DNA of 64,000 nt from Eledone cirrhosa (Eukaryota). The notes beneath the pieces were generated by a model that was given only the letters and a program-made list of their open reading frames with translations, had not been told where the DNA came from and ran no database searches. The stretch covers positions 290,098,001 to 290,162,000 of the forward strand of contig OZ024743.1 of NCBI GenBank assembly GCA_964016885.1. Direction: 5' to 3'. The position numbers and the translations under genes were made by a program. Positions 1 to 60,921 of the stretch are shown piece by piece. The stretch's first letter is position 1, and every line of letters starts with the position of its first letter.

Positions 1-176
1 TATGTGTGAATGTATAATTTACGTACTATTACGAATATGCGTGACTTTGTGTATGTTTATGTATTTGGATATTTATAGATTTGTGCCTCTCAATTTATGC
101 CCATTCTTTTATTTCAGCCTCATTTTCCTTTATCCTAAACCCTGTTTTCAAATCGATACTCCATTCAATAATAAAC

Positions 177-238
177 TTATTCTGATGAATGAAGACATTC
201 TTTAGTGTCAAGCTCTTCAAGAAACCATTGGTAAATGA
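177..238 (+). ncRNA. Type I hammerhead ribozyme (PLE pLTR-type)
   Basis: ttatt-CTGATGA(182-188)-stem II tgaaga/tcttca-GAAA(221-224)-ccattgg-TA-aatga; GUA triplet; 5-bp stem I with one G-U. Confidence 0.6.
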
Positions 239-323
239 ATTAGCTATCTTATGTTGTTTATTACATAACTATATCTATATGCATATACATTTGCGTATAA
301 TACCAATATGCACACTACATATG

Positions 324-950
324 CTAGCAGAAAACCGCGCGCTATGCGGTTTTTCTGCTAGTTATATTAATTGTTTAAAATAAAAGAGTTAATAAATAAA
401 TAAACCGTTATACTTGTATTACCTTCATATTTCCACTTCACCGAACGCTATCCTGACTGTATGTGTCTGTTTGTGTAAACGTATATGTGTGAATGTATGT
501 ATGTTTGTGTGAAAGTTTGTGTGAAAGTAAGTGTGAATGTATGTATATGTGTGTGAAAGTATGTATATTTGTGTGAATTATATCCGTGAGCGTCTGTTTT
601 TATAAGTTTGTGTTTGCGCGATTATAGTTATATACTCATAATAGTTATATACTCATACGCGTCAGCGTGTAGAAAATCATAATATCTCTATCTCTCTCCT
701 CACACCCTCCCTCCTTCTATATATATGGTAGTTGAAGTGGTGGTGGTGGCGACGATATACCGGAAGTAGAACTTTGAAAAGAAGTCCATTTTAAATTAGG
801 AAATTTTATGAAATTATTTGTTTACGAAATTTAGTACGTAAATTATGTAATATTCATTCATAATTTATTCAAAATAATCCAACTTAATTCACTAACTGGA
901 TTAAAAGAAATAAACAGTACGCAGTCCCGCAGAACTTTCTTTATTATAGT
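324..950 (-). mobile_element. Probable non-autonomous Helitron
   Basis: GC hairpin ccgcatagcgcgcgg followed by ttttctgCTAG on the minus strand at 324-350, like the other Helitron 3' ends here; 5' boundary uncertain. Confidence 0.4.
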
Positions 951-1807: not shown

Positions 1808-3337
1808 TACTGACATTAATGTATGACATACCTCAACTGTGCTGATGTTTCAATTCCAGTCTTGGCAGTGATTTATTACAACAAAACTCAATATTTATAT
1901 ACCACAAGTAATAGTGTGACAAACTAAATATGATGGAGAGGGATACATAGCGGGATATAGGAGTGGGTGAGTAGGAAAAAGTATAGAAGAAATAAATAAA
2001 TAAACACGTAAGTATATAAATGTTAAATATTTAACTATTTGAATATGTAAATATCCGTGTTAGAGAAAAAGACAAAGGAGAGAGAGAGTGTGTGTGTTAA
2101 ATAGAAGAGCAAAGGGAAAAAGATAAAAACATAAAGATAAAAAGAAGGGAGTGGGAGATAGAGATGATAGAATATATAACTGCATAAGGAAAAGAGATAA
2201 AAAAGAAAGAAAGAAGAAAGTATGAGAGTATTTATCATAACTTAATTGCATATCACCATCTGTATATATGCATTTTATATAATGTTTAGAATTATAAATT
2301 TTATAAACAATGCTATTTAAATCAATAGTTGTCAATTACATATAGGATTAATTATTAGTTGTATTTATTCTTGAAAGTACTATTATTTCGATTCAACCAA
2401 ATCTTATTTTATTCAATACTATAGATCAAGTTAAATACAGATTATTAATAAATTTGGATAAAACGAAAATTATACACGATAAATGTAAACAAATGAGCTC
2501 CGTACAATATATCCAAACGTTTAAATTAACTAAAAGGTTTGAAAGCCTGAAAGTATTTCAGATCTCTCAAATTTAGAAAATTCAAGACATAAAATGAGGA
2601 CTCTAAAAACAAACTAAAGGTATTTAGTCAATCAAGAGATTAACTTGCTATATAAATGAACTGATATGCATTTCCTAAGGTGAGGTAAAACATTTTACAT
2701 AATACTAATAAAAACAAGAATTATTAATAAAAGTGAATATCTTTTTTCACTCAGTCAATGATTTTTCCTAAATGTATATGATGCTTGAAATATTTTTATA
2801 GATTTATGGAGGCAATTTGAAAATAACTCACTTTTTGTATTAATTAAATTACCATAATTAGCAATTATTAATAGATTCTCTAAATTGCAAATATTGCAGT
2901 TTGGTGAAATGGAATCGTTACGATAGGATTCAGAGTTTCTAAGCTTAACCCAAGAAATTGAGTATTTCATATTTTTCTCTTTTAAATACCATATTAATTG
3001 TGATAATGAAGTAGACATTTTTTTATCTGGATTAGAAAAAGAATGTTTATGATTGGAAAAGCGAAGTTTAAAGTTCGATGAAGTTGCACCGATGTAGTTA
3101 TAAGTAATATTATTATTTGTTTTAATGGTACATTTATATACTAAATTCTTATCAAGGCAGTTATTTCGTAAAGGGCATTCGGATTTCCTTCTACAGATAC
3201 AATTCAATTTCATGTTATTTCTATAATATAAACTGTACATATTATCATTGTTAGTATCAGGTGTTCTACAATATGTGTTTAAATTATTGTTATTGTTATT
3301 CTCAATAACTATTGTATTATTATTATTACTATTGTTA

Positions 3338-3396
3338 AAAGTACCAGTAATACACTGGTTCATTGCTGGCCTTGTGCCTAAAATAGAAACAATTAT
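3338..3396 (+). mobile_element. 3' fragment of the tRNA-derived SINE inserted in the PLE ORF
   Basis: aaagtaccagtaatacactgg...gctggccttgtgcctaaaatagaaacaatt matches the SINE 3' end at 8145-8203; lies in the AAT-rich linker and splits the ORF. Confidence 0.75.
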
Positions 3397-4008
3397 TACT
3401 ATTGTTATTATCGCTAATTATATGTTGGTTTGAATTAAGAATTCTGCTATTAATTTTTGCAATATTTTGAGCCATATTCATGGTTGTTGAGTACGAAAGT
3501 TTAACTGTGTGTCTATTGAAGATAGAGTAATATTTATGTGATCTAGGGAAACATTCATCCAAGGCTTTGAAAAATATATGTGGTAAAGGCGTTTTAATAG
3601 CTAAAGATGCTGGCGGGGCATACCAAATAATAGTTCTAGTTCCAATTTTTTTCACCGATTTATTCTCCAAATTGTTATTTTTATTTATATTTATATTTTT
3701 ATTTTTACAGTCAGTTTTATTTATATTATTCCTAATATTATGAATATTTTGTTTATAATTACTATTATTATTTTCTACATAGTCAATATTATATTTATAT
3801 CCTTTTTTATGTAACGCTTCATTGTAATATCCAACTTTACTATTAAAAATGGATTTGTTAGCAGCTACTCTGGTTATACGTTGTTGAACACTATTGACTA
3901 TTGCATTTTTAACACATTTAGGATGATTAGAATAAAAACTAACATAATTTAGGTCATATATTCATTGAATAATCAATGAACCTTGTTTAACATTTGGTTA
4001 ATTATATA

Positions 4009-4048: not shown

Positions 4049-5870
4049 AAACAGAAATAACAACACAATCGGTACAGAATATGGAAGGAATATATTACGT
4101 TAACGCTTGAAATAGCAGGAAGAGGGTCTTAACGTTTCGGACGCTATTCTTTAATCAGAAGAAAGAATGAGAAATAAGGTAGATTGAAGGGACAGGGGTG
4201 GGTGGAATTGGAAAAATTGTCTTTAGATAAAAATAGCAGGTCTATTCATGTTGTCATTTCTTGGAAATTGATGATGCTGACATTAGGCGCATGGTTTATT
4301 TTTGTAGAAAAGTGGATGATGGAACCCGTCTACCTGATATGGGAAAAAACCGTTTTTTAAAAAGAGCTATACTTGTGCACGTGCGTATTCATGTGTGTGT
4401 GTGTGTGTGTGCGTGTATCTGTGTGTGTGTGTTATTATACATCCATACGAAGCTAAGAATAAATGTGTGTGTATATGTAAGTAAAAGAGTGTGTGTTTGC
4501 TAGTAAGTACGAAGCTATGAGTAAAAGTATGTTAAAAGTGGAGTGTACATATTTGGTCGGTCTGTATTAGTTGTAAGAGAATATGTTTCTGACCATAAGA
4601 GAGTTATAGAATCTAGGGGTGAATTTACAAGCGCGTGTGTGTTAATGGACGAGGTGTTAAATAAATTGGGGGAGGGGTGAGTTGAGTCCATGAGGGAAAT
4701 AGGACCCTACGCGGTAAATCAGACTCTGTTTAGGTCTGTTGCGGGAGGCATGTGTTTCGTGATGTAAAAGGACACCCAGGATTCAGACATGTAGGGTAAA
4801 ATGACCAGCAGAACGGAAATGACGGGTGACAGGAGTATCCAAACCGAGTCGTGTGTCCCTCAAATGCTCAGCAAAACGGTCCGCTATACGGTGTCCCATT
4901 TGTTCGATGTATAAAGACTCGCGAAGGGAACACAGCAGAGCATAGACAACGTGGGTTGATGTGCAGGTGAATGAGTGGAGGATACGGAATGACACGTTAT
5001 GGCCTGTGAGAATGGTGAGGGTGGAAATGAAGAGACAAGTGTTGCACTGGGGACAAGAACAAGGATGAGAGCTGGGTGGAGTCGTAGAAGAGAACGAGAA
5101 GGAAATGTGTTCCAGTAGGTCACGGAGGTTACGGGCGCACTTAAATGCGGTAATGGGTAGCTTTGGAAAAAAGTGAGAAGTGACGGTGTCAGAAGAGAAG
5201 TTGCGAAAGGAACGGAGGATATTTCGCCGGAGTGGTAGAGTAATGGCGTGGTAGGTGAGAGGGAACGGGAGGCGGGTGGTGAGAGGGCGCTGGTGAGGTG
5301 AGAGGGCTGTGGTACGGTCGGTTACACGGGCGCGGGTGAGAGCAGCTTGGATCAGGGTGGGGGATATCCACGCTGGATGAAGCGGGTAGCAGTGTGAAGG
5401 GAATGGGTTTCGAAATCGTCGTCCTGGCTACAGAGCCGGCGAAGACTGAGGAATTGGGAATAGGGTATGGAGTGTTTGGTGTGGGTTGGATGGAGGGAGG
5501 TGAAGTCGCCTAAGATTGGGGTTGGTTGGTTTATAGAGGATGGAAGTAGAGAGGCTGTGGTGAGAGTGATCGTTAGATAGAGAGATATCTAGAAAAGGCA
5601 CAGATGAATCGGAGACGGTGGCGCTGAAGGTGGGAGCAGGATGAAATGATTGGACAAAAGATAGTAATGAGTCGAGCAGTTCTCGTGATAGCGAGGTGGC
5701 GCCGATACAGTCGTCGATATAACGACCGTATAGCTCAGGAGTAGGTCCAGCGTACTGGGAGAAGATCTGGGCTTCGACGTAGCTAGCAAACAAGTTGGCA
5801 TAGTTTTGTGCCATTCTGGTTCCCATCGCTACCCCAGAGACCTGCTGATAGAATTCACCCGAATAGGAAA
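4045..5870 (-). mobile_element. Penelope-like retroelement remnant (RT + GIY-YIG, frameshifted)
   Basis: MGTRMAQNYANLF...YGRYIDDCIG...VPFLDI...YKPT (PLE RT); CTSTHVVYALLC...LYIEQMGHRIADRFAEHLRD (GIY-YIG); decayed HHR at 4127-4162 (CTGATTA...GAAAcgTT); (TA)n flanks. Confidence 0.9.
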
Positions 5871-5931
5871 TGTATATATATATAAAGAAAAAAATGCGAT
5901 GTTGTATATGTTAGAGTCTCTTATTTATTGA

Positions 5932-10240: not shown

Positions 10241-11983
10241 TTTACTATATAATATTTCCTTTCGTTCTTACAGGGTCGAGAAAATGGAGTACCAGTAACG
10301 TACTGTGTCAACTTAATCGATGTTGCTCTACACCAAAATTGTTGGCCTCCTGCCTAAATCATTATCAACATATATCATATTCAATCTATAAACGTTATAT
10401 GAATCCTTAATTTTGTGCAGGTTCAATATTTTATCAAATAAATCCATAGAAAAAACTCATACAAATGCGCTCTTGCACGCATACATACGTAGGTATATAC
10501 ATAGGTATATATGTATATGTATGTATATATATATATAGATGTTTGTATGTATGTGTGTGTATGTGTGTGTGTGTATGAATGTCAGTTTTTGTATGTGCGT
10601 ATGTATTACTTTATAGTCGAATTTGTGTTATTTTCATGAAAAACGAATGGTTTAGAGGTCAATCTTGATAAAATGTCAAACCAGTTTCTAATATATCAAT
10701 AAGTAATAGGAAAAGAAACAGCGCATTCTTTTCAATGCAATTTTGTGAAAATAAATGCACAAAACGGTTATATAAATAAACAACAGAGCTTTCGAATCAC
10801 CTGCAATATTGAATTGCTGTAGTTTCAGAACTTAATTTAGTATTCAGATTTCTAATTTTCTTTTCAAAGAAGCAAGAAAATATCTTTAAATATTGACAAC
10901 CATCAATAACTCCATTTTCACTTTGCTGTTGTAAAAATGGTTCAGTCTTTCTTCTTTTGATTACCTTGACAAAAGATAAAATAAAAAGATCTGTAACCTA
11001 AAAAACAAGTAGATTATAGAATAATGGAGGAACTATCTTAAGCTTGATCAATCATTATTGAATTATTTCTAAGTGAAAAGCTAACCTATGTTTCTATTAT
11101 ATATTTCGTCTAAGAAATTAGTGATAAGTGATTGAAACCCTATAGAGAGAGTGATTATAACTCATGTAGCTTAAACTCACACAAAGACGCAGATAGATAG
11201 ATGATTACACATTAACACCAAACATACTCATACGTGTGTGTATTTATGTATGTATGTATGGATGAATGGATGGATGAAAGGGAGTATGTTTGCCTACATA
11301 TACATATATTTATGTATATGTTATTAGATATATATATGTGCGTATGCGCGCGCGTTCGTTTGCATGAGCGTCTATGTGTGTTTATGAGTTGTGTGAGTGT
11401 GTGAGAATATTAGATTTTGAAAAGTTTTGTACGTGTATTTATTATATATGTGTGTACGATGATGCTATTACAAAACTAAATTTTCAAGAAATAATATTTT
11501 AGTGAACGTCGGTAGATATATCTCCCCATTGAATGGAGAACATGTTAAACGAAATTGTTATCTGTATAACTTCATCTCTACAGTGACTGCTAATACAATA
11601 CAATATTTACATTTATATTATTATATTCATAGAGAGAGAGAGAAATAGAGAGGGGGCGAGTAAAACACCGACCCCGCAGAGAAGCGATTTCGATACAAGC
11701 CGAAACCACTTGTTGCTGCTGAAGTAATTTTACGTATCTATATACGCAATTTGCATCTCCTCATGCATTGAGCATCCAAATGTTAGCACTGTGACCGGTT
11801 TCAGCACTGCAGACTCTCTCTATATAATTATATAAGAGCATAGAGTGCTCAACTGGCATAGCACCTATGGAAGCATCTTAGCTACCATCAGACACACATA
11901 TATATATATATACATATATAGAAATGGCTTCTACAGGACTACTCACGATTGAACCGGGGATAAACTTATATATATATATATAT

Positions 11984-12473
11984 AAACGGAAACAATGAAA
12001 CGAAATTTCATTTCCCACTCTTAGTACGGCTGTTACTTAAATATAAGTATAAGTATGTACACGTACATACATATATGTATACAGACATACAGTAGTATGT
12101 ATATATATATATATACATACATGCACACATATATATATATGTACGTATGGATTCACCGAACATTTATTATAATGCTCGGTGTGTTTGTAAACAAACATCC
12201 CGTATTAAGCCGTAGTGTCCAGCAACCATTGTTGCTCGTTTGTTCAACACATACAAAGGAACGCTGTACTAGTTTCAAGCTTATTAGCTATCGTCAGCAA
12301 CGTATACCTTCCTGCCAGAGTGTTGAACGTCTGAAAGTATATACTTTCCTTATGCATATTAACGGCTGAGTAGCCCAATTTGCATATCGAGTGGGTTAAT
12401 CGGCGCCGAGTGCACCGAAAACGATAAACGGAAAAAATGAAACGAAATTTCATTTCCCACTCTTAGTACGGCT

Positions 12474-12477
<4 letters not shown>
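11984..12477 (-). mobile_element. Retrozyme-like element, family beta (~440-bp monomer + ~50-bp redundancy) in (TA)n
   Basis: Terminal direct repeat aaacggaaa.aatgaaacgaaatttcatttcccactcttagtacggctgtt; intact HHR; homologues at 39340-40890. Confidence 0.85.
12261..12303 (-). ncRNA. Intact minimal hammerhead ribozyme
   Basis: acgttg-CTGACGA-tagc taataa gctt-GAAA-ctag-TA-cagcgt. Confidence 0.85.
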
Positions 12478-12558
<81 letters not shown>

Positions 12559-13225
12559 TATATAGTAATAATATTAAATTTGAAGACTAAAATCCCAAGA
12601 GGGCTCGATAAGGATAAATATATATCAAATATATAAGAACCGTAGAGCAATATATATATATATATATATATATACACTCACAGAAAAAAGAGTCAGGATC
12701 CGACAGCTGTTCTCCGGCCGTTTCGACAGCTAGATCCGGGCGCTGAGTACACTGCTGCGTTATGCTCCACCTGGTAACTTACCATAACTTCTTTGTCATA
12801 TATACATACATATATGTATATCTAAGTAGAAGGGATATTTAATTTGTTGGAAATTCAACAAATATAAATATTTATAACAGATTCAGAGCACTCGACAGTT
12901 TTTGGAATAAATATTCAATGATATTAAATAAATGGAAACCATATTTATAAAACCATATTTATTCTATTATATATATTTCAAGAGTATATATATATAACAT
13001 TAAAAATGCGAGGAAATGATCAAGAAAAATATACCTACTTTTTCTTCAAAGTCCTGACAGCATTTTTCCCGATTGACTTTGATGCAACCATGCACTATAG
13101 AAGTGCAACATCGCTGTGAGGCTATTAAGGCTTATCAAGAGACCCCTCAGTTAGTGGAATGTTTCATAACAAGTGAATAATTCCCGAGAGACGGGGGAGA
13201 AATTAACACGCGATTGAATGGTTAA

Positions 13226-14083
13226 TCTCTCTCTATATAAAATTTGTTGTCTCCCTGTCTTTTTCTCTGTCTGTCTGTTCCTATGCATATCTCACGGCTG
13301 GACCAAATCAAATCTAATAGTATTAGACCCAGGAAGTGTCAACATGTAATTTTTATTTTCATTTGGATTGATAGTAAACCACGACGACGAAGATGACGAC
13401 TCACATTTTATATATGAGTGTGTATGTGTCTGTGAGTGTGAGTGTGTTTATGCGTTCGTTATTTAAGTTAGGGCTCAGAGAATTAAACATACTCATACAT
13501 CTCCACATACATACACATAATGTGTATAAATGTAATTGAGAGTGTAGACGTCACATTTTGTATGTGTATGTGTATGTCTTATTATATGCATGTGAATGTA
13601 TGTTAGAGTGTATATGCGTGTGAGTGTATATGAGTGTGTATGTGTGTGACAGTGTATATGTGTTGACTGACATAACAATATTTTCTTTAGTCAGTTATAG
13701 TAAACGACCACCACCACGATGACAACGCACACACATCTACACATAGAGACACATATATGATGAGAGACAGGTGTGCGTGAATGTATGTCTGTATATGTCT
13801 GTGAATATGTGTGTGTTTGTGCGTTCATTAGTTACGTTAATAAATAGACACACATAGATCTACACATACATGAATTATACAATGAATATTGTTTACCCTA
13901 AGTTGCTTCAAGATTGTCAGATTTTCATTTCTAAATTCTATTATCATTACAATTTTAATATTTAAAAAAATAAATATAGATATTTTCAAATAATTATGAG
14001 AAAAAAAACATAGCTTCATATTTATTGTTTACCTAATCTGAATAAGAACAGCATTACCTCGGCAACGCCGGGTAATTCAGTTA

Positions 14084-14084
<1 letters not shown>
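13226..14084 (+). mobile_element. Non-autonomous Helitron (decayed)
   Basis: 5' TC...tatataaaa start; 3' cctcggcaacgccgggtaattcagttaa is a degenerate hairpin-CTAG end. Confidence 0.55.
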
Positions 14085-14120
<36 letters not shown>

Positions 14121-14124
<4 letters not shown>

Positions 14125-14709
14125 ATATGAAAACAAGCGTGCTGCCTGGTTGCAGATGGGTTACAAATGAATAAATTTAGTGCTTCATCAGTGATCCTCC
14201 AACCTTCTTTGGTATTTCATCGCTTTAAAGACCATATATCTCCGCTTGGTACGAGCAACGGCTAAAGAAAGTCGCTGGGACACGTAATTAAGGACAAGGA
14301 GCGAGACTGTAAACAATCAAAGATGGTAATGCAACGAAAAGTGAGGAAGAAGGAGTCAAGTCCATGAAATCGATGAATATAAGTTCTGTGAAATCGTGGA
14401 CGATAGAGAATAAAGACCATCACACCTGGTTGAAATGTGAGCAAGGAAAGAATTTCGCACAGGTGAAACGGGAGGAAGAAGGAGACGAGAGAGAATAAAG
14501 AACAACCGGCCTGGTCAAAGTGTGCATGAGGAAAGAATTTCGCCCAGCTGAAACAGGAGGAAGTAGAAGAGGAAGTAGCAGAGAGTGAGTGAGTGAAAGG
14601 TGAGGAAGAGTCTAACAGAGAGAGTGACTGTTGGAGGGGTAAAGGGAAGTGAGACATACAGATAAAGGAGGAAGCAGTAAGAAAGAAACAGACGGGTCAC
14701 AGCGGAGGA

Positions 14710-14710
<1 letters not shown>
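14121..14710 (-). mobile_element. Non-coding element, family delta (one monomer) with permuted hammerhead at 14182-14240
   Basis: Co-linear with 26095-26810; shares ccgctgtgaccc and the 3' junction with 52888-53480; (TA)n on both sides. Confidence 0.8.
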
Positions 14711-14749
<39 letters not shown>

Positions 14750-14759
14750 TTATATTGTT

Positions 14760-15065
14760 GTTGTCGGGTTGCAGTTAAATGCGTCCGTAGGCGCTATGCC
14801 GGTTGAGCACTGCATGCTCGCAGAGAGCAGAGTATAATATTATCAAGAACGAGGAATTAGTATTGCATCAAAACACAATTTATTAACACATTACGTATGT
14901 TTCTCCGTCGATCAGCTCGAGGCAGGATCTGTTATAGATCGAACCCTACTCTGCATTCGAAGGGTCTTCAGATCTGTAACAGATCCTACCTCGAGCTGAT
15001 CGACGGAGAAACATATGTAATATGTTAATCAATGTTGATTTGATGCAATATTGTTTCCTCGTTCT
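14760..15065 (-). mobile_element. Fold-back pLTR fragment (hairpin 14846-15065) with conserved tail
   Basis: ~95-bp inverted arms; GAAA-catacg-TA...AATAAA...atactctgct tail shared with 11835-11895 and 25993-26066. Confidence 0.65.
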
Positions 15066-15780
<715 letters not shown>

Positions 15781-17406: not shown

Positions 17407-17457
17407 AGCTTCCTGAAGATTTCATCTGAATGAAACAGTACTAGTCCTGTAGAAGCT
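17407..17457 (+). ncRNA. Intact type I hammerhead, family gamma
   Basis: agcttc-CTGAAGA-t ttc atct gaa t-GAAA-cag tactagtc ctg-TA-gaagct; AATAAA and (TA)n follow. Confidence 0.8.
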
Positions 17458-17500
17458 CCTTCTATAAAATAAAAAAAAAAAATATATATATATATATATA

Positions 17501-20081
17501 TAGGAAGAAGTATGACCCCGACGGCAGAGCACAAGCCGTTTCGACGGATAATTCTCGTCTAAATAACAATTTTTAGCCTGGTAAATAAATAGCCAAACAT
17601 CTCAGGAAGATAGTCATTGACAAAAGGATTGGTCAAAAATTTGTTGTAAAGACATGATTCTATCACGGCATTTAGTGGAAGGTAGGGTAGCTGAACTTGC
17701 CGGTAGAACAAAGAGGGAGTGGGGGAAAACAGTCAAGCTTTGAAAGTGAAATCTATACAGCAGATTCTAAGGATAGTGTATAGAAGGTCGAAAAAAGTGT
17801 ACTGGAGAATAGGGTTGGTGAAAAAAGGTAAATCGAAAAGGAGTAAACAAAAAAGCCATTATAAAAATGAGGAAATAAATATATAAAAAAACAATTTTTG
17901 GCTACTACTCCATCCCCACAATCACCAAATCTCCCATTGATATGGCTCATCTATAGAAAAGTTTAATAGGTGGAGAAAAATGCTAAATACCCGATTGTAG
18001 TGAAAGAATTTTATAAAGCCATCTTTACAGTGGGTCTAACACCACTGCTATAGTTAGCAGTAATCAGCCAATGCTATCTTATAATGACAGGTTAATAAGT
18101 TGAGGACGAACATACTAAAAAACTAATACGAAATATTAATTCAGAATACTAATACATACATACTAATAAAAGAATAATAATGCAAAAATACCACTAAGAA
18201 TTTTAGAAATCACGGAAATGGAGCAGCAACCAGAAAGAAAGCAATTATCTGGGGCCTAACACGTCTGCTATGAAAAGGGTAATCGGCCAATTCTATCTTA
18301 AAATTAGGGTAGGGGGTGCTGAGGCTACAGAGGACCGATGGGCTGCATCGGAGTGGGCGCGAGGTGAAAAAAAAACGACAAGGAAGGAGATATGCGGTGG
18401 AAGGACAAGGCAGAGCTGGGGGGAAGAAGGAAATATAGAGGAAAAGATAATAAAAATTAAAAAGTTACGTCTACCTTTGTAGGCAAGGGTTACCCCTTAC
18501 AAAGTCGGCAAGTGGGGTGTTTCAGCCCTTGTCTACCCCCCCCCCCCCGGGTTATTATGGGGTTTCAGGGCGAAGTATGTCCTCCGCAATCTATGTTTGC
18601 ATGCAGTTACCAGTTCGTCTTCCTTGTTTAGGAGTTGGTCCTTCGAAAACAGCATTTGTAATGTTTCCTCCTAGCATAAGTTACACGGACGGCGTCTTCT
18701 CGTGTAAGAGTTAGCTCTGGACAGTAAGCTCCAAGTGAGATTGTAGGTTATATTATTATTTTTGAGGTCCCACATGTGGCCCGAAAGTGTAGTGGCGTGA
18801 CGCCGGGCCGGGTTTCGGAAAGTATGTCTGTCTAGATAGAGCCGGGTCTTGAAGTCACAAGAGGTTAATCCTATATAAGCTTTGTTGGAGGTGTCCGTCC
18901 TCACGTTGCACTGGTAGATCACATTACGATCTCGGCATCTGTTGTTGAGGGGGAAAAGGGGTCTATCAGCACAGTTACAACTCCTGGTCGACTCTCTACT
19001 GCTGTCTAGGTTATTTCTTCCATAGGGGTGGTGTTTTTTGTTGTTAGAGGAGACGATCTTTTGTGCAAAGTTAGGTGTGGTGCTGTAGGAGAGTTTGATG
19101 TTGATTTTGTTGATTATGTTGTGGTAGCGGTCTTGTAGTGGGAAGTGTTTTTCGATGAGCCTACAGAAGATTTTCCCTATAGGTGTTGTCACCTCGGCAT
19201 TGTGAGGGTGGATTGAACCATGTTACGGTGTGTGAGCGGCGGTGTCGTGCTAGTTCCGCTAATGGAAGCTGGATAGTACGATATTTCCTCCCGGAAGCCA
19301 CTCCGCTTGAGGGCCTGGTTGTAATAAGGCGCACATTCATCGAATATTTGCTCATTAGTGGTATTTTTGCATTAGTATTCTTGTATTAGTATTTATGTAT
19401 TAGCATTCTGAACTAAACTACTAACTATAGCAGTGGTGTTAGACCCCCTGTAAAGATGGCTTTATAAAATTATTTCACTACAATCCCGTATTTAGCATTT
19501 TCCCCCACCTATTAAACTGTTCTATAGCTTAGCAATACCAATGAGAGATTTGGTGATTGTGGAGATGGAGTAGTAACCAGAAATTATTTTTTTATATATT
19601 TATTTCCTCATTTTTATAATGGCTTTTCTGCTTACTCGCTTTCGATTTACCTAATTTTTCAAGTCTCTCTCCTCCAGTACACTTCTTTCGACCTTCTATA
19701 CACTATCCTTAGAATCTGCTGTATAGATTTCACTTTCAACGCTTGGTTGGGTTTCCCCCACTCGCTCTTTGTTCTACCGGCAACTTCAGCTACCCCTACC
19801 TTCCACCAAATTCCATGATAGAATCATCTGTCTTTACAACAAATTTTTGACCAATCCTTTTGTCAATTACTATCTTCCCGTATATGGAATTACCCCCTGA
19901 GAAGTTCGGCTATTTATTTACCAGGCTAAAAATTCTTATTTAGTCCAGAATTAGCCGTCGAAAAGGCTTGAGCTCTGCCCTCAGGGTCATACTTGTTCCT
20001 ATTAATCACTATACTACTCCTCTAAGTATTGAGTACTTTGGTGCGTTATGGTCCATCTGGATCCTTAACACATTTCCCTCG

Positions 20082-20117: not shown

Positions 20118-20710
20118 TTATAAGAATGTGAATGAAATATATTCATGCACACATAAGTGTGCACTGATATATATCAAAACTTAAAACTGTGTGTATGAAT
20201 ATATTTCATTCACTTTCTTATAATGATTAAGACTTGACTTTATTCTCTGAATTCTATCTTGAGCTGCTTTTAGAGACAAGACATTTCCATATATATCTTT
20301 CTATACAGATCACGTTATATAGGAAAAAAAGTGTTTGAAATGTGCACCTGGTAAATATAATATAAAACGCATCTTTATAAGCTGTACAAAAATTGATGTT
20401 AACAATAGATGTTTAACAAAGCAGGCAATTTAACGAAAAAAAAAACAATTTAACCTAATAATAAATGTTTTGATATTCCAATACGGAGAAAGCAGCATTT
20501 GCTAAACTTCAATTTTTAACATCACTTTTTGTATATATAAAGTTCCTTTATATATATATATACTAGGTACTTTTATCATTTTCCACACACACACACATAT
20601 ATATATATATATGTATATATATATATCCATACATATGTGTATATATCCATACATGTGTATATATATATTTGTATATATATATTTGTATATATATATCTAT
20701 ATATATATAT

Positions 20711-21134
20711 ATGCAAACACCGGGGAGCTAACGCCCTCTGGTGTCCAGCAGAAGCAAGGGAGACAACCGTCTATGCATTTCAGGCTTAACTGGCCTTCGT
20801 CAGGACGGTCCCTCCCACCGCTTGCGACTACTGGACTAGAAGACAGGCGAGAATATATACTTTTCTCGTCTGTGTAAATGAGGTGATTAATCTCATTTGT
20901 ATATGAAGCTGCACAATTTGGCTCAACTTATAATAAAAAAGAAATAGGATTTCGCTTCTAGCATAGCTTCATACAATATGTATAAATATCTCGTATTTCC
21001 AAGGAAACACGGTTTTAGGAAGCCGAAGCTATGCAAACACCGGGGGGTTGACGCTCTCTGGTGATGTCCAGCAGAAGGAAGGGGGACAACCGTCTATTCA
21101 TTTCAGGCTTAACTGGCCTTCGTCAAGACGGTCC

Positions 21135-21137
<3 letters not shown>
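20711..21137 (-). mobile_element. Retrozyme-like element, family epsilon: ~320-bp monomer bounded by two hammerheads, in (TA)n
   Basis: ~105-bp terminal direct repeat containing the HHR (20766-20809 and 21089-21132); no ORF. Confidence 0.85.
20766..20809 (-). ncRNA. Intact minimal hammerhead ribozyme
   Basis: accgtc-CTGACGA-aggc/gcct-GAAA-tgca-TA-gacggt; all stems perfect. Confidence 0.9.
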
Positions 21138-25713: not shown

Positions 25714-26094
25714 GACGCACAGACATGCGCGCGCACACAAACACACACAAATATATATATATATATATACGGAGATAGAGAGAGAGAGGGGGAAAGAAAT
25801 AGAGATATATAGGTATATATATGAGTGAGAGAATATGCTCCGAAATCATTAGACGTGTCCGTCGAACCTGCGGGTCCAGAATCAGACAGATCCACACAAT
25901 GATCGCGTTTCAAGCAGTCCGCCGGTGATACAATTGTAACACAGAATAAATAGAGTTCAGATGCATCACTGATTTTTCGTTTTCTATTCTATCATACTCT
26001 GCTCTGTAAGAGCAAAGTGAGCAAAACCGCCATACCGCCTATGGAAGCATCATAGCTACCATCAGACACACACACACACATATATATATATGTA

Positions 26095-26809
26095 TATGAA
26101 TAAAGTGGTCCTTCATCAGTGATCTTCCAACCATCATCGGTATTTCTTCGCTTTAAAGACCATATGCCTTCGGTTGGTGCGAACAGCAGCTAAAGAAAGT
26201 CGTTGGGACACGTAAATAAAGGGAACAGCGAGAGTGTAAACAAACAAAGATGGTGAAGCAACGAAAAGTGAGGAAGAACGAGTCAAGTCCCAAATTTCCA
26301 TGAATATAAGTTCGGTGAAATCGTGAACGACAGAGAATAAAGACCATCAAACCTGGTTGAAATGTGAGCAATGAAGGAATTCCGCACAGGTCAAACGGGA
26401 GGAAGAAGGAGTCTAGTCCGTGAATTCGGTGAACATAAGTTCTGTGAAATCGTAGACGAGAGTGAGAAAAAAGGCGAACCAGCCTGACCAAGCGTGCGAA
26501 AGTAAAGAATTACGCACAGGTCAAACGGGAAGAAGGAGGAGGAGGAGATGTAGTAACAGATAGTGAGTGAGTGAAGGGTGAGGAAGAGGCTAACAGAGAG
26601 AGTGACTGTTAGAGAGAGTAAAGATACAGAGAAAGAGGAAGCAGTAAGAACGAAATAGACGGGTCATAGCGGGGGAAAAATATGTGTAAATATTAGAATA
26701 AACGTGCTGCGTGGTTGCAGTTGGGTTACATATGAATAAAGTGGTCCTTCATCAGTGATCTTCCAACCCTCATCGGTATCACTTCGCTTTAAAGACCATA
26801 TACCTCCGG

Positions 26810-26810
<1 letters not shown>
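26095..26810 (-). mobile_element. Family delta element: 636-bp monomer + ~75-bp redundancy, two permuted hammerheads
   Basis: Direct repeat 26095-26170 / 26731-26808; homology to 14121-14710 in a shifted (circularly permuted) register; (TA)n flanks. Confidence 0.85.
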
Positions 26811-30050: not shown

Positions 30051-30617
30051 TTATATATATGAATATATACATTTTTTAGTGTTTGCGTTAGTGTATCTTT
30101 GTGTGTGTTTGTTTCCAAGCTATATGCTGCCGTGTGTTTTTGTGAGTGTGTAATTGAATGGAAGTTACTAAGTAGTTTGAATAAGTGACTAAGTGATTAA
30201 GAATATAGTCATTAATTAGCTAGGCCCCTATCGATTATATTATGGAAAATGCTGTCACCGTATTCAGTTCCTGTGATATATATTTTTGAAATTGCGATGT
30301 TTCATAATGTTATGATATTTTCTATGTTTTTCCTAATTGGCAAGCTTCGGCCATGACTTCTCCTTCCAGGAACTGACTCTGGACAAATCTAGCAGTAGAT
30401 CATGGATGGAAGCTACATCACAGTCCAAGGATAATATAAAAGCCAATGCGATGATCCCAGTGTCGTAACAACGCATTATCTAACTGAATCGTAACAACGC
30501 ATTATCTAACTGAATCGTAGAATAGTAATCAAATAAGCAACCTTACCTTCTTGATCCTAGCACACTGAAAACTAGGCCACCCTATTAGAACCCTTTTCAA
30601 AATTTACTGACAATCGT

Positions 30618-33600
30618 GTGTTAAAATCGGTTCGGTTTTATGCAAAGTTCGGTTTTATGCAAAGGCTAAAAACTTTATGGCACTCCAAACACCCAGAATT
30701 AGACTTTTCTCCAAAGCATCTAAATGAACAGGCAAAACGTATCATTAGATGTAAATTGATACATCTAACGGAATCGAGTGATACTACAAATACAGCCCTT
30801 GTAGACAACCACCCCACCTCCACTGACAGACAAAGAGAATGGCCAGCTAAATCTAACAGTGAACAGCTCACCAACAATTTTGCTGAAATCCATCCCACTT
30901 CCACTGAAGAACAGCGAGAAAGGTCAGCTGACTCTAGTAGTAATTGTCACCACATCAACAACGAGGCTGCAATTCATGACTCTACTGAACAAACAGAGCA
31001 CCAAAAACTTGTGGGCACCCTACAAGTGATATGGAACGATATGTTTCAAGAGATTCACAGCCTTAATGTGAGTGACAGACCATACAACACTAGAGTCAGT
31101 AAAGAACCCACTAAATTGGAATTGGAAGCGGTGAACGAAATAGCTGGCAATTATCTGAAGGCTATACGATCTAAAGGTGTAGAAACGACATTTGAAACGC
31201 TCAATGTTTTGTTATATGTTTCAGCTGTCACATTGCTATCATATAACACACATCTAAAACCACGCAATCAAGATACAAACAGAAAGCCTGAACCAGCGTG
31301 GATGCGAAATTTAAAAACCAAAATTTTGTCCCTGAGACGAAGTATCTCACACATCGCAGTCGTTATGAAATGCAACATAGAGAGAAACTTCACACGACAC
31401 CAGGAAGACCTAAAGAAAAAGTTAGAGAGACGATTTGGAGATACGAAATTTAAAACTTTGAACTCCAAATTACACCAGTTGAAACAACAACTCACAGCTA
31501 CAACAGAAAGACTAAAATATAAGTCAACAGCCCATAAACGACAAGTGCTAAATAGATTGTTTGCCAGAGATCCTAAATCAGTTTATCGCAGCTTCAGTGG
31601 CAAAAGCTCAATCCCTGTAAACGACACCCCTTCAAAAGAACAGGTTGAGAACTACTGGAGATCTGTATGGGAAACGGATGACGGATTCAACAGACAAGCT
31701 AATTGGCTAAAACAACTGGAACAGGACTACTGCCAACATGTCCAGACAAAACAATATGACATAGATGGGTCAATACTGGAAACAGCTCTACAGAAAATGT
31801 CGAATAGGAAATCGCCAGGCCCAGACCTCATTACAGGATACTGGTTGAAGAATTTCACTTTCTATCGGCAAGATCTCATACGGCTGTTTACAGAAACCAT
31901 TAAGGGCACACAAGAACTGCCCAGAGGGTTATCAACTGCCACTACTCTCCTCATTCCCCAAAATAGCCAAACCACCCTTGCTAAAAATTACCGCCCAATT
32001 GCCTGCCAAAACATCATGTATAAATTATATACTGGGTGCCTTAACCTGTTCTTACAGGATCACTGTGCTACCAACAACATCATAACACATGAGCAAGCTG
32101 GTGGAAAGAGGGAGGTGTGGGGTTGCATAGATCACCTACTAACTAACAAAATGATTCAGGAAAAAACAACAAAGAATCGCAGAAACATGACTGTCGTGTG
32201 GCTGGACTATCAAAAAGCATTTGATAGTGTACCTCATGGGTGGATTATTAAGGCTTTACAGTTAGCTAAAGTCCCACAACCATTAGTAGCTGCTGTTGAA
32301 CGCCTGACCAAGAACTGGTACACCAATTTGATCCTTAGAGGTGAGAAGGAGCAGGTTAAGACTGATAGGATACATTACCAGAAGGGCATCTTTCAGGGTG
32401 ATAGCTTGTCAGTACTACTCTTCGTTCTCTCACTGAATCCATTATCTTACCTACTCAGGAAACAAGGTGGACAAAGAAGTGGGCCCAGAAGTATCTCCCA
32501 TCTTTTCTTTGTTGATGACCTGAAGTTGTATGGGCCAAATATCAATGACATCAAGAAACAATTGGACCTCATTACACAATTTTCAACCGACATCAAAATG
32601 AAATTTGGTGAGTCCAAGTGTGCATATTTGGCAGTAAAACGTGGAAGAGCTGTGCCCTCCTCTAGAAATCTAGATATGAACGGCCTGACAATACAACCTC
32701 TGCAGTCAGGTGACAACTACAGATATCTTGGACAGGATGAGAATGTCAGATATGATGGACCCATAAATAAGGAGAGAACCAGAACTGAATACCTCAGAAG
32801 AGTAAAAAAAATATGGTCATCAGAACTGTCAGCATACAACAAATACATTGCCCACAATACCTATGCTGTGCCAATTCTAACGCCAACATTTGGCCTACTG
32901 AACTGGTCATTGCAAGAACTAAGTGAGATGGATGTTAGAACTCGAAAACTTCTCAGTGTTACTGGGAATTTTAACATCAATGGTAATGTGGATAGGCTAT
33001 ACTTCTCACGCAAGGAAGGTGGCCGGGGTCTAAAATCAATATTAACAACATATGAGACCCGGATAGTAACACTGAAGCAACACCTTCAACAGAGGAAAAA
33101 GGTTGGCGACCATCTTGCTCAGGTTTATGAGCATGAAAAAAGAAATATCATTAGAATAGCGACTGATCTGGAGGAGAGATATGGAATAAAGCCTGATATA
33201 AATCTCTCACCCAGAGAAATCGGAAGATCCTATTCAATGTTCAAACAAGAAAAAAAAATTGACCAATTTACAGAGAAAGTTGTGCATGGATACTTGAGGC
33301 GTAAAACACAGACCATAGAGGGGATAAACCACTCAAAAAGCCTGGCATGGAGTTCCGACAAGTTTATGACATCACACCTTGAGGGATATCTCTATGCAAT
33401 ACAGGAACAAGAACTCCCTACCAAATATCTGCTGCACAAAAGAGGAGGGCCAGCAGCTGACAATAAATGTAGGCTATGTAAAACAAAGATCGAGGATGTA
33501 AGCCACATTGTTGCCAGCTGCGAAAGAATGTCATCTCGCTACTACCTCCCCATGAGACACGATGGGATAGCTAGAACTATCTATAACGCACTTCGGAAAA

Positions 33601-34040
33601 CAAAATTAACAACAAACGAGGAAGAATATATTGAGACAGATGGCACTAAGGAATACTGGTGGAACCTGAAAATAAAAACTGCCACCAAATTAAAGCACAA
33701 CCGGCCTGATATTGTAGTTTGGGATCACACATTGAAAACGTGTTCTGTTGTGGAGATCAGCTGCCCACTTGATGTAAACGTTGTCAGAAAAATACAGGAG
33801 AAGGAGGACATCTACGGACCATTGATGAGGAGCTTACAAATCCAGTATCCAAGATACACCTTTAGCTTCATACCCATCATTATTGGTGCTACGGGTTATA
33901 TACCAACCCGCTTGGACCAAAGTATGACCGAACTTGGATTTGCGGACAAAAAGCGCAGCTCCCTAATTCATAGTCTACAAATGGCTGCGATAGCTGACAC
34001 CTTCAAAATATGCAAAACATTCTTGCGATTCAAGGGTTGA
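30618..34040 (+). CDS. R4/Dong-clade non-LTR retrotransposon polyprotein (RT, CCHC finger, PD-(D/E)xK restriction-like endonuclease)
   Basis: KSPGPD, NYRPIAC, WLDYQKAFDSVPH, GIFQGDSLS, HLFFVDDLKLY, YRYLG, GGRGL; CRLC..HIVASC, RHD, RPDIVVW..VEISCP; open for 1140 aa; start codon doubtful (probably 5'-truncated). Confidence 0.93.
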   Translation: MLKSVRFYAKFGFMQRLKTLWHSKHPELDFSPKHLNEQAKRIIRCKLIHLTESSDTTNTALVDNHPTSTDRQREWPAKSNSEQLTNNFAEIHPTSTEEQRERSADSSSNCHHINNEAAIHDSTEQTEHQKLVGTLQVIWNDMFQEIHSLNVSDRPYNTRVSKEPTKLELEAVNEIAGNYLKAIRSKGVETTFETLNVLLYVSAVTLLSYNTHLKPRNQDTNRKPEPAWMRNLKTKILSLRRSISHIAVVMKCNIERNFTRHQEDLKKKLERRFGDTKFKTLNSKLHQLKQQLTATTERLKYKSTAHKRQVLNRLFARDPKSVYRSFSGKSSIPVNDTPSKEQVENYWRSVWETDDGFNRQANWLKQLEQDYCQHVQTKQYDIDGSILETALQKMSNRKSPGPDLITGYWLKNFTFYRQDLIRLFTETIKGTQELPRGLSTATTLLIPQNSQTTLAKNYRPIACQNIMYKLYTGCLNLFLQDHCATNNIITHEQAGGKREVWGCIDHLLTNKMIQEKTTKNRRNMTVVWLDYQKAFDSVPHGWIIKALQLAKVPQPLVAAVERLTKNWYTNLILRGEKEQVKTDRIHYQKGIFQGDSLSVLLFVLSLNPLSYLLRKQGGQRSGPRSISHLFFVDDLKLYGPNINDIKKQLDLITQFSTDIKMKFGESKCAYLAVKRGRAVPSSRNLDMNGLTIQPLQSGDNYRYLGQDENVRYDGPINKERTRTEYLRRVKKIWSSELSAYNKYIAHNTYAVPILTPTFGLLNWSLQELSEMDVRTRKLLSVTGNFNINGNVDRLYFSRKEGGRGLKSILTTYETRIVTLKQHLQQRKKVGDHLAQVYEHEKRNIIRIATDLEERYGIKPDINLSPREIGRSYSMFKQEKKIDQFTEKVVHGYLRRKTQTIEGINHSKSLAWSSDKFMTSHLEGYLYAIQEQELPTKYLLHKRGGPAADNKCRLCKTKIEDVSHIVASCERMSSRYYLPMRHDGIARTIYNALRKTKLTTNEEEYIETDGTKEYWWNLKIKTATKLKHNRPDIVVWDHTLKTCSVVEISCPLDVNVVRKIQEKEDIYGPLMRSLQIQYPRYTFSFIPIIIGATGYIPTRLDQSMTELGFADKKRSSLIHSLQMAAIADTFKICKTFLRFKG

Positions 34041-39270: not shown

Positions 39271-39318
<48 letters not shown>

Positions 39319-39339
39319 GCGTAAATTATATATATATGT

Positions 39340-39881
39340 ATGCACGTGTACATACTTATATTTCAGTAACAACCGTACTAAGAGTGGGAAAGGAAATTTC
39401 GTTTCATTTTTTCCGTTTATCGTTTTCGGTGCACCGGGCCTATTAACCCACTCGATATGCAAATTGGGCTACTCAGCCGTTAATATGCATACGGTAAGTA
39501 TATACGTTCAACAATCTGGCAGGAAGGTATACGTTGCTGACGATAGCTAATAAGCTTAAAACTAGTACAGCGTTCCTTTGTCAGTGTTGAACAAACGAGC
39601 AACGATGGTTGCTAGACACTACGGCTTAATACGGGATGTTTGGTTACAAACACACCGAGCATTATAATAAATGTTCGGTGAATCCATACGTACATATATA
39701 TATATATATATATGTGCATGTATGTATATATATATACATACTACTGTACGTCTATATACATATATGTATGTACGTGTACATACTTATATATAACTAACAG
39801 CCGTCCTAAGAGTGGGAAATGAAATTTCCTTTCATTTTTCCGTATATGTATATATATATATATATATTCATGTGATGTATT

Positions 39882-39952
<71 letters not shown>

Positions 39953-40886
39953 GTAAATATGTATGTATGTATACGTACATACATATATGTATACAGACGC
40001 ACAATAGTATGTATATATATACATACATGCTCACATATATATATATATATGCACGTATCGGTTTACCGAACATTTATTATGATGCTCGGTTTGTTTGTTT
40101 GTAAACAAACAGCCTGAATTACGCCGTACAGTGTTTAGACAACCGCGTCACCCTTTTGTTCAAGACTGACACAGGAACTATGTACTAGTTTCAAGCTTAT
40201 TAGCTATCGTCAGCATCGTATACCTTCCTGCCAGATGGTTGAACGTCTGAAAGTATATACTTTCCTTATCCATATTAACTACTGTACGTCTGTATACATA
40301 TATGTAAGTACGTATACATACATACTTACATTTAAGTAACTGCGGTACTAAGAGTGAGAAATGAAATATCGTTTCATTCTATTCCATTTATCGTTTTCGG
40401 TGCGCCCAGCCGACTAAACTCACTCGAAATGCAAATTAGGCTGCTCAGCCGTTAATATGCATAAGGAAAGTATATACTTTCAGACGTTCAACCATCTGGC
40501 AGGAAGGTATACGATGCTGACGATAGCTAATAAGCTTGAAACTAGTACATCGTTCATGTGTCAGTGTTGAACAAAAAGGTGACGTGGTTGCCTAAACACT
40601 GTACGGCGTAATTCGGGCTCTTTCTTTGTTTACAAACAAACAAACCGAACATTATAATAAATGTTCGGTAAACCGATACGTGCATATATATATGTGTTGA
40701 TGTATCTATATATATAACTTTGAATAACTTTGAAATGTTTTGGCCAGTATTGGCCCAGGCCATGTCTAACTTAATAGCACCACCTGGTGTACGTATGTAT
40801 ATATGTATGTACGTATACATACATATTTACATGTAAGTAACTGCCGGACCAAGAGTGAGAAATGAAATTTCGTTTCATTCTATTCC

Positions 40887-40890
<4 letters not shown>
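39340..40890. mobile_element. Cluster of three family-beta elements (39340-39843 +, ~39960-40280 -, 40281-40890 +)
   Basis: Homology to 11984-12477; HHRs at 39531-39573 (GAAA mutated to AAAA), 40177-40219 (-) and 40511-40553 (+, intact); the + copies are terminally redundant. Confidence 0.85.
40511..40553 (+). ncRNA. Intact minimal hammerhead ribozyme
   Basis: acgatg-CTGACGA-tagc/gctt-GAAA-ctag-TA-catcgt; stem I covaries relative to 12261-12303. Confidence 0.88.
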
Positions 40891-40937
<47 letters not shown>

Positions 40938-40942
<5 letters not shown>

Positions 40943-42960
40943 AAGAAAAGATGAAATCAAAAATGAAACTGGATGCTTATTTAAAAATATATATATATAT
41001 TTATTTGGCTCCTTTACCGGTTTCGCAGTTCTTCTGCTTTTCAAAAGTAGAGCTGAGATAGAGGGTCTGTGGTTTTTCTCACATTTGGTTGGTCTTTGAA
41101 TGTTACTTGTTTTATATGGAAAAAAGTGGCTCGAAACGCCAGGTTTTTAGAGAAGTAATTTGATTGGTTGGTCAATAAGTATAATACATTTTGCGCCAGT
41201 TCGCGTTACAAAGTTTATTCAAACAGGTAGGGGGGGGACTTAGGTTGTTTTTTCCTATATGAGTGTTTGAATTTCTTTTTACTTTCAAAAAAGTGGCTCA
41301 CGAGGCTTTTTTTAATAAACGTAATTTGATTGGTTACCAATGCCAAATTACCTACCGCAAACCCACAACCAACTGTCAAAAAATGTGGTCGCTCTAATTG
41401 TGGAACCTGCACTCACCTCATTGGAGGCAACACGTATATATTTAAATCAGGACTACATTTTGCAGTAAAAATTCACTTCATTTTCTCATCAAAAAATCTA
41501 CTTTATGCCATTAAATGTAAAGGATGCAATGAAGATTATATAGGACAAACTAAACTCAGAAGCAGAATGACAGCTCATCGCCAACCATTACGAGATCCAA
41601 CCACGAGACAGATACCACTAAGTGCACATCTAGACATATGCGCAAGTAATAAGACACCCAAATTCCAAGTCTTCTCATTTTACATTTGCGCTGACAATAC
41701 AGCAGAACCAATCCGAATAAATAAGGAAAATATGTTTATTCAAAAATATAGACCAGCATTAAATATGGTTTAATATACATTATGTCAACACCATAACATG
41801 CTAACCATCCAAAGAGACACATACACACACACACACATAACACCTCCTACTTTAGAAAATAAAAACCCGAACTAAATAAACCTTAACATACGTTTACGCT
41901 GACAATACAACAGAAGAAATACGAATAAGTAAGGAAAATATGTTCATTCAAAAATATTCCTACTAACGGAATCATTTTCCTACACACATACACACACACA
42001 CGCACAATATATATATATTCTCTTCATCTTAACATGCTAACCATACTCCCAGACACACATAACACCCATATACACATATAACAACCCCCATCCCCACACA
42101 AACAACACCCTCCCCCATTTCTACTAATAGAATCACTTTCCTACACACATATATACACACACACAGAATATATATATATACTCTCCATCTTAACATACTC
42201 CCCCCCACACACACACACATAACACCCATATACACACACACAACACCCTCCCCCATTTCCACTAATAGAATCATCTTTCTATACACACACACACACATAC
42301 AAAGACACAAATAAACATACATATCTTTTCTTTCTTTATTTCAATAGAAAATCTGAATTCTGACCCCCCAGCGAACTAACCATATTCACTGAACCAGAAC
42401 AATTCCCCCATCCCATTTCTCTTGACCATTATCTTTCGCTTGTCATAACATTTTCTAAAAGGGCTACAAAATATATTTCCAAATACGGGCGCGAATTTAA
42501 TGAACACTTGTTCATTTATAAACAATCAAATTACGTTTATTAAAAAAAAGCCTTTGTGAGCCCCTTTTTTTAAAGTAAAAATAAATTCAAACACTCATAT
42601 AGGAAAATACAACCTGAGCCCCCTCCCCTTGTTTGAAGACCTTTGTAACGCGAACTGGCGCGAAATTTATTATACTTATTGACCAACCAATCAAATTACT
42701 TCTCTAAAAACCTGGCGTTTCGAGCCACTTTTTTCCATATAAAACAAGTAACATTCAAAGACCAACCAGATGTGAGAAAAACCACAGACCCACCATCTCA
42801 ACTCTACTTTTGAAAAGCAGAAGAACTGCGAAGCCGGTCTATTTTAAAAAAAAATAAGACTCCAGTTGCATTTTCGATTTCATCTTTTTTTCTTTATACT
42901 TTCACTCGTGTAGGACATCTCGGTTATTTTTCATTTTGTAAAAAGAACCTCACTTTCTAA
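40938..42960 (+). mobile_element. Penelope-like remnant (GIY-YIG) with ~390-bp inverted pLTRs
   Basis: ORF 41330-41773 KCGRSNCGTC...NLLYAIKCKGCNEDYIGQT..RMTAH...RINKENMFIQKYRPALN; arms 40938-41331 / 42523-42897; (TA)n flanks. Confidence 0.9.
41009..41050 (-). ncRNA. Minimal hammerhead with U3-A8 variant core
   Basis: ctactt-TTGAAAA-gcag/ctgc-GAAA-ccgg-TA-aaggag; same core in the second arm (42810-42816). Confidence 0.65.
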
Positions 42961-52800: not shown

Positions 52801-52887
52801 AATGAACCATTTTTATGGAAAAGAAAACAGAGAGAAAAAACAGGTGAACAGACCCTATCTTGGGGGGACAGGACAATGGAACATGCA

Positions 52888-57498: not shown

Positions 57499-57795
<297 letters not shown>

Positions 57796-60800: not shown

Positions 60801-60921
60801 GTTTTTTTCCTTGATGTTCGAACGTTTTGGCAACTGTGATGCGCGGGAAGTAACTTTTAAACATTTCAACAACAGAGCAAATGTCGACTTACACCCGGGC
60901 AACGCCGGGTACTTCTGCTAG
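57830..60921 (+). mobile_element. ~3.1-kb non-autonomous Helitron
   Basis: A|TCttatatatg 5' end; 3' cccgggcaacgccgggtacttctgCTAG|T; internal degenerate tandem repeats. Confidence 0.7.

Follow-up and report, generated by a model that had tools for sequence, protein, structure and literature searches.

How can copies of one short non-coding repeat come to lie at different sites of a chromosome as circular permutations of a single monomer? The question is raised by a repeat family, here called delta, in a stretch of 64,000 nt of Eledone cirrhosa DNA (the window), which is AT-rich, of animal type and rich in microsatellites. A sequence-only reading of the window had proposed that the delta copies were made from a circular or multimeric RNA, or by template jumping of the kind seen in Penelope-like elements (PLEs), with an RT acting in trans. 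The explanation that we favor, with a probability of roughly 0.7, is that delta is an old, decayed, non-coding and non-autonomous PLE, likely a passenger of the Naiad clade, that was copied from multimeric or circular RNA carrying a hammerhead-like fold of permuted order. That the copies are circularly permuted is normal for PLEs and not new, because partial tandems, an optional tail of 30-40 nt, internal initiation of RT and AT-rich targets, among them (TA)n, are already established in this group of elements (PMC11167929, PMC8557442, PMC3846280). What has been newly noticed is that all three copies bear the core motifs of a hammerhead in the non-circular order S-G-C.

Layout, junction and ends of the delta copies

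The copies and their parts, other than the hammerhead-like motifs, are as follows.

14121-14710, minus strand: copy A, one full unit of 590 nt; the pyrimidine-rich minus strand is the probable RNA sense
14087-14120, no strand: (TA)n target on the 3' side of copy A
14710-14755, no strand: (TA)n target on the 5' side of copy A
14694-14705, minus strand: 12-nt motif of copy A directly past the junction, conserved in all three copies
14141-14154, minus strand: AC-rich motif of copy A, likewise conserved in all three copies, immediately ahead of the common 3' end
14399-14570, no strand: internal 85-nt duplication of copy A
26096-26810, minus strand: copy B, 1.13 units with a period of 636, flanked by (TA)n tracts
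26661-26719, minus strand: read-through junction in copy B, with an ATAT (26680-26683) to which both ends of A correspond
26732-26810, minus strand: 5' terminal repeat of copy B, spanning a whole S-G-C motif with GAAA changed at 2 positions
26096-26174, minus strand: 3' terminal repeat of copy B, including an S-G-C motif
26264-26541: a different internal duplication, of about 129 nt, in copy B
52888-53480, plus strand: copy C, a distant relative with a period of 560 and (TA)n at its 3' end only
52888-52918 and 53448-53478, plus strand: 31-nt terminal repeat of copy C, 30/31 identical
52927-52938, plus strand: post-junction 12-nt motif of copy C, identical to that of A

The delta unit is non-coding and about 560-640 nt long, and the four ORFs that overlap the copies have no Pfam match at E < 0.05. 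Copy A is, as had been read, exactly one monomer between (TA)n tracts. When B is aligned to a doubled A, it corresponds to A[46..590] joined through a short junction to A[1..124], with identity at 457/530 and 103/123 aligned positions, and the single ATAT at 26680-26683 takes both ends of A (+/-3 nt). Since both ends of A map to this one point, A comprises a single unit and B, permuted relative to it, 1.13 units, which bears out the claim that B reads through the junction of A and has its own ends elsewhere. The terminal repeats of B are identical at 73/79 positions.

The reading of copy C, according to which it is a copy of the same monomer and shares an end with A at the junction, held in one part only. 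Its 3' end indeed lies at the point equivalent to that of A, where the pre-junction motif is followed by (TA)n, but identity of the monomer is not borne out: the local alignment of C with doubled A reaches z 3.1 (observed score 79, best of 200 shuffles 80), that with B z 1.5, and nhmmer matches C to delta at the junction only (E 0.034). With local alignments near the level of shuffles, C is tied to A and B through short motifs and shared RNA structure; MAFFT places it in a register different from the coordinate-based pairing of these motifs with A and B. Nor is its other end flush, as it overruns the junction by 31 nt and so forms the terminal repeat, which means that two of the three delta copies read through the junction. 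The copies thus comprise 1.0 (A), 1.13 (B) and 1.06 (C) units, none of the three in the window exceeding 1.13, with (TA)n on both sides of A and B and on the 3' side of C. A fourth copy was not found within the 64 kb.

Read-through copies could also arise as local DNA tandem duplications of a monomer with fixed ends that were trimmed later, an origin for which the sequence-only reading had itself allowed. The repeats of B are closer to each other (73/79) than to A (84-86%), as local duplication would have it, and both A and B contain internal duplications. We nevertheless regard this origin as very unlikely: read-through is found in two of three copies, which belong to two very divergent lineages and cross a common junction followed by a common motif, neither junction (B, C) keeps a (TA)n spacer, both ends of B would have had to be cut back as far as (TA)n, and other hammerhead-bearing families of the window show similar terminal redundancy.

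A DNA circle integrated at an ATAT core by a tyrosine recombinase, presumably of a Crypton- or DIRS-like family, would account for the location of both A ends at one ATAT and of the 3' end of B at another. This alternative is scarcely credible, as the second ATAT match has to be seen against 5 ATAT/TATA starts per 636 nt, microhomology with a (TA)n primer gives the same ends, and neither the ribozyme motif nor the occurrence of differently ending copies of more than one unit is explained.

The flanks of the copies hold further repeats. The right flank of A contains a long inverted repeat (14830-15070, about 240 nt), members of whose family also occur at 25945-26097 and 11833-11920; this family abuts both A and B across (TA)n. 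A frameshifted fragment resembling LINE ORF2 by eye (52500-52810, minus strand) is located directly beside the 5' end of C.

A hammerhead-like motif in the order S-G-C

On the pyrimidine-rich strand of A, of the 3' repeat of B and of C, the elements of a hammerhead follow each other as cleavage site, GAAA and CUGAnGA, that is, in the order S-G-C.

14185-14240, minus strand: S-G-C motif of copy A; predicted cut after 14235 (AUA), GAAA at 14218, CUGAUGA at 14191
within 26096-26174, minus strand: S-G-C motif in the 3' repeat of copy B; predicted cut at 26163, GAAA at 26146, core at 26119
53319-53372, plus strand: S-G-C motif of copy C; predicted cut after 53325 (GUC), GAAA at 53341, CUGACGA at 53366

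CUGAnGA lies about 65-110 nt before the common 3' end in A and C, and 17 nt before the end in the shortened B. GAAA is found 25-27 nt upstream of CUGAnGA and nowhere downstream of the core. The canonical type I, II and III hammerhead readings of the motif fail. A reading of delta as a C/D-box RNA was dropped too, because the C box is not conserved, and since there is no tRNA gene within the window, delta has no intact tRNA head of the kind found in SINEs.

Stem pairs were counted by coordinate in four motif copies (A, two in B, and C). Stem I is formed by the strand just 5' of CUGAnGA and the upstream strand following the UH triplet (8/8 pairs in A and in both copies of B, 6/6 in C), and stem III by the bases after GAAA and those preceding the UH triplet (4/5 in A and in the 3' copy of B, 5/5 in its 5' copy, 6/6 in C); in C both stems consist of Watson-Crick pairs throughout. 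The UH triplet is AUA in A and B and GUC in C, with the A15.1-U16.1 pair kept. Core CUGAnGA, GAAA and the UH site are intact in three of the four motif copies, the exception being the 5' copy of B with its altered GAAA, and these nucleotides persist in surroundings that can hardly be aligned. Between A/B and C, double-sided changes occur at 4/6 pairs of stem I and 2/5 of stem III, six in total, a covariation that comes from just two independent lineages (A/B and C); when the stem I strands are swapped between these lineages, only 2-3 of 6 pairs survive.

Stem II is the weak part of the motif: two G-C pairs after one unpaired A in C, one pair in A and, in B, none that adjoins the core. All three motifs of A and B have some defect. 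Stem I is present in the minimum-energy folds of all four motif segments. In B, a competing helix between the cleavage strand and post-core bases is favored (-8.3 kcal/mol versus -6.6 for stem I), and stem III of A forms no favorable duplex. A helix joining stems I and II has candidate duplexes of -1.3 to -6.1 kcal/mol, in differing registers and calculated without a control.

A tight S-G-C descriptor, the limits of which were chosen after the matches were known, matches 3 of the 44 CTGANGA sites in the window, all of them in delta, compared with 1/6696 and 4/10560 sites in shuffled windows. With a loose descriptor there are 4/44 matches, three in delta and one elsewhere (56257), and two matches in 100 shuffled windows, which hold about 21 core sites each versus 44 in the real one. 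When the upstream 45 nt were shuffled 20000 times with the other two strands fixed, the pairing was reached at p 2.0e-4 (A), 1.5e-4 (3' copy of B) and 5.0e-4 (C), and no real 45-mer of the same unit scored as high (0/375, 0/405 and 0/325, respectively). A relaxed scan returned four sites, all in delta, but adds no significance, since its null is 0.73 matches per window (30 windows). Plain folding of the 3' regions, in which pseudoknots are not representable, gave no extra stability over shuffles (z -0.01, 0.02 and 0.05). Rfam had no match in the whole window at the gathering score, and E-value scans of A, B and C returned merely (TA)n-driven microRNA models and weak chance matches; this negative result is weak, because Rfam likewise failed to detect the minimal hammerheads of canonical type that other families of the window contain. 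A scan of bacterial and archaeal genomes with one short motif gave 0 matches.

The closest described counterpart is the type-SGC hammerhead, a non-circularly permuted form reported by Eckert et al. 2023 solely from environmental sequence (PMC10085705). Delta shares with it the S-G-C order, CUGAnGA, GAAA, the UH site, stems I and III, one unpaired base after the core and similar spacing; a single unpaired base at this place is also known from the minimal hammerheads of PLEs (PMC4209133). Unlike type-SGC, delta resides in animal chromosomal DNA and has 0-2 pairs of stem II, whereas the published descriptor has a G-C pair next to the core plus at least two further pairs, the alignment of variants shows about 6 pairs, and disruption of stem II abolished cleavage (PMC10085705). 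With two pairs in C, one in A and none core-adjacent in B, all delta motifs fall short of this descriptor and are therefore called SGC-like here, not filed as members of type-SGC. At the level of titles and the opening lines of abstracts, in a body of literature where subscription journals are thinly covered, permuted hammerheads are nowhere linked to PLEs or animal genomes; a 2026 paper mentions hammerhead permutations by citation only (PMC13725137).

Naiads and the copying of delta

Naiads have been stated to contain no canonical hammerheads (Craig et al. 2021, PMC8557442). In that account their 3' ends did not fit hammerhead descriptors, and cases were annotated as "HHR_core" or "HHR_half_core", the second core half lying on one side or the other; eight Naiads, one Octopus family among them, are marked "HHR_half_core". 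Naiads are further described as having a (TA)n target, partial tandems and an optional tail, with old remnants in Octopus, and a (TA)n bias is also reported for Neptune PLEs (PMC8557442).

Approximately the last 200-300 nt of 53 of the 54 Naiad consensi given in File S5 of that paper, some of them partial, were read by eye. Five of the 53 ends have the S-G-C order, two from Octopus and three near-identical ones from Acropora, which makes two independent lineages. The Octopus motifs have stem I 6/6, stem III 5/5, the same 27 nt from GAAA to the core as A and B, and a stem II of two pairs followed by A.G, as in C; they lie about 70 nt before an AT terminus. One of the two Octopus consensi bears the authors' label HHR_half_core (PMC8557442). 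In the Acropora Naiads, stem I is complete (6/6) in two and has 5/6 pairs in the third, stem III has 8-9 pairs and there is no stem II. Six nematode families end in complete C-S-G motifs with a stem II of 5 pairs. The other 42 ends are without such a motif in the stretch covered, which would hide motifs located further upstream. Several bivalve consensi and one from jellyfish in File S5 end in what we take by eye to be twister-like motifs, and those of oyster and hemichordate Naiads in presumably HDV-like ones, which suggests that Naiads may carry varied ribozymes.

Delta and the octopus Naiads (PMC8557442) thus have in common the S-G-C order, the spacing from GAAA to the core, (TA)n and partial tandems. 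Unlike these Naiads, delta has no ORF, and when the ends are compared by eye, there is no evident similarity beyond the motif. As in Naiad-type PLEs, terminal repeats are present in B and C, while A is a single unit. A coding PLE sharing the termini of delta was not found within the window.

The motif may, alternatively, be a non-catalytic relic or a protein-binding structure in a PLE passenger RNA that is not self-cleaved, a reading that we regard as less likely than not. Stem II is absent or has at most two pairs in delta and is likewise weak, by eye, in the coral Naiads; the motif segments of delta have competing folds; PAc inserts in vitro without its hammerhead, the cleavage of which requires protein (PMC11167929); and 8 of 9 Xenopus retrozyme dimers did not cleave (10.64898/2026.07.22.740005). 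Against it, the core nucleotides, a valid UH triplet (AUA or GUC) and the A15.1-U16.1 pair persist amid barely alignable sequence, and nematode Naiads possess, by eye, complete C-S-G motifs with 5-pair stem II. The weakness of stem II need not be due to decay alone, because it recurs across the S-G-C motifs of Naiads; it would also account for their escape from the published descriptor.

To the favored explanation, a PLE passenger with an S-G-C fold, can be added a broader proposal to which we give even odds. Part of the Naiad clade, together with passengers such as delta, would use non-circularly permuted hammerheads, in a complete C-S-G form in nematodes and a reduced S-G-C form in octopods and corals, the first to be noted in animal chromosomes; the reduced form would represent a new minimal design able to cleave, perhaps only when the PLE protein is present. 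If so, delta links the half-cores of Naiads (PMC8557442) with the non-circular permutations (PMC10085705), the missing ribozymes of Naiads may be rearranged ones, and the range of non-circularly permuted hammerheads extends to animal retroelements. Delta also suggests that genome-wide hammerhead counts overlook a class, and its motif offers an exact predicted cut site on an RNA of about 80 nt.

In the mechanism that we propose, the RNA of delta would be the pyrimidine-rich strand, produced either as a circle or as a head-to-tail multimer. Every unit would adopt the S-G-C fold close to its 3' end, with stems I and III and almost no stem II, and the RNA would cleave itself at the predicted site. 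A PLE protein acting in trans, probably that of a Naiad, would nick (TA)n; RT would start internally on the RNA, preferentially at an AT-rich point that lies downstream of the motif, and halt after about one unit, leaving copies of 1.0 to 1.13 units with shifted ends.

The ends of the copies are as follows. The 3' end of B, a single case, is 45-47 nt short of those of A and C, at a second ATAT that is missing from A. The 5' end of B lies 11 nt before one predicted cut and its 3' end 17 nt past the second core, so its terminal repeat covers almost exactly the ribozyme-like motif. Past the predicted cut, A extends for about 114 nt and C for about 155 nt. RT would have started at the junction in A and C and 45-47 nt earlier, at the second ATAT, in B, which in this one instance resembles a tail-less end. 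The PLE protein perhaps binds the conserved 12-nt post-junction motif, a candidate recognition site; in tandem RNA this motif would lie downstream of the start point, paralleling the need of PAc for RNA beyond its own start sites (PMC11167929).

This scheme is similar to the model for the Poseidon element PAc of Anolis, in which an AT-rich site is nicked, RT starts inside tandem RNA at an AC-rich region downstream of the hammerhead, and two start sites account for the optional tail (PMC11167929). PAc, however, is autonomous, belongs to another clade and has a hammerhead of canonical order, whereas delta is non-autonomous and SGC-like. The proposal of a multimeric or circular RNA template copied in trans by a PLE-type RT has gained support, as it fits the copy layout, the (TA)n target, the motif and the order found in octopus Naiads.

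A narrower version of this explanation specifies a circular RNA: two ribozymes would excise the monomer, which would be ligated and reverse transcribed for slightly more than one lap. B has two motifs one period apart, and circular RNAs have been shown for the animal type I retrozymes (PMC7229834). We consider the circle as such doubtful, as 1.13 units is the most that any copy reaches, A and C end well beyond the predicted cut and not at it, and linear partial tandems account for the same layout.

The comparison with animal non-LTR retrozymes goes further, since both these and delta are short, non-coding and ribozyme-bearing or ribozyme-like, both are thought to depend on PLEs, and dispersed monomers are common among the retrozymes (PMC7229834, 10.64898/2026.07.22.740005). 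Animal retrozymes are, however, defined by type I hammerheads in at least two complete tandem units, whereas delta has the S-G-C order and at most 1.13 units in its three window copies; the recent preprint used type I models only (10.64898/2026.07.22.740005).

The partner could, finally, be a PLE of another clade (Neptune, Nematis or Hydra) and not a Naiad. PLE remnants with a C-terminal GIY-YIG are present in the window and Neptune is (TA)n-biased as well (PMC8557442), but the hammerhead near one of the GIY-YIG remnants (1801) has the canonical type I order, no S-G-C match adjoins any PLE remnant of the window, and octopus Naiads do, by eye, have the S-G-C order. A partner from outside the Naiads is therefore unlikely.

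Other elements in the window

Other families contribute seven motifs resembling canonical type I hammerheads that pass a simple check, and several of these families are also terminally redundant, by about 45-80 nt. A second non-coding, retrozyme-like family (11967-12564, 39272-39862, 40293-40907 and 40012-40279) has type I hammerhead-like motifs at 12297 and 40213 on the minus strand and 40517 on the plus strand, a period of about 430-500 nt, terminal repeats of about 45-60 nt and, in three copies, the same 3' end beside (TA)n. The element at 20710-21136 comprises 1.3 units with a period of 323, and a type I hammerhead-like motif opens each of its terminal repeats (intact at 20803, minus strand). 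At 53679-53830 there is a dimer of a 73-nt unit, 98% identical, with one hammerhead core per unit; the outer core (53748, minus strand) has a stem I of 8 pairs and a long stem III. A short repeat occurs at 17408-17471 and 57601-57665, with a type I hammerhead-like motif at 17413 on the plus strand.

Decayed PLE coding remnants with C-terminal GIY-YIG-like domains are located at 2755-3961, 4783-5910, 18671-19222 and 41330-41773. One of them matches Pfam GIY-YIG, and the others we took to be PLE remnants by eye from PLE motifs; a homology search with 2755-3417 returned no match. Two remnants are flanked by inverted repeats (17500-18061 with 19417-20002, and 40936-41342 with 42513-42898), typical of inverted pLTRs. 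An uninterrupted RT ORF of 1154 aa (30576-34040; Pfam RVT_1), presumably R4/Dong-like by its appearance, has its best named match in Argonauta hians (64%), which, as a match of one transposon protein, suggests an octopod host. At 14055-14086 and 60898-60960, a short GC-rich hairpin is followed by an AT-rich end before (TA)n, an arrangement that we take to resemble a Helitron-like 3' end.
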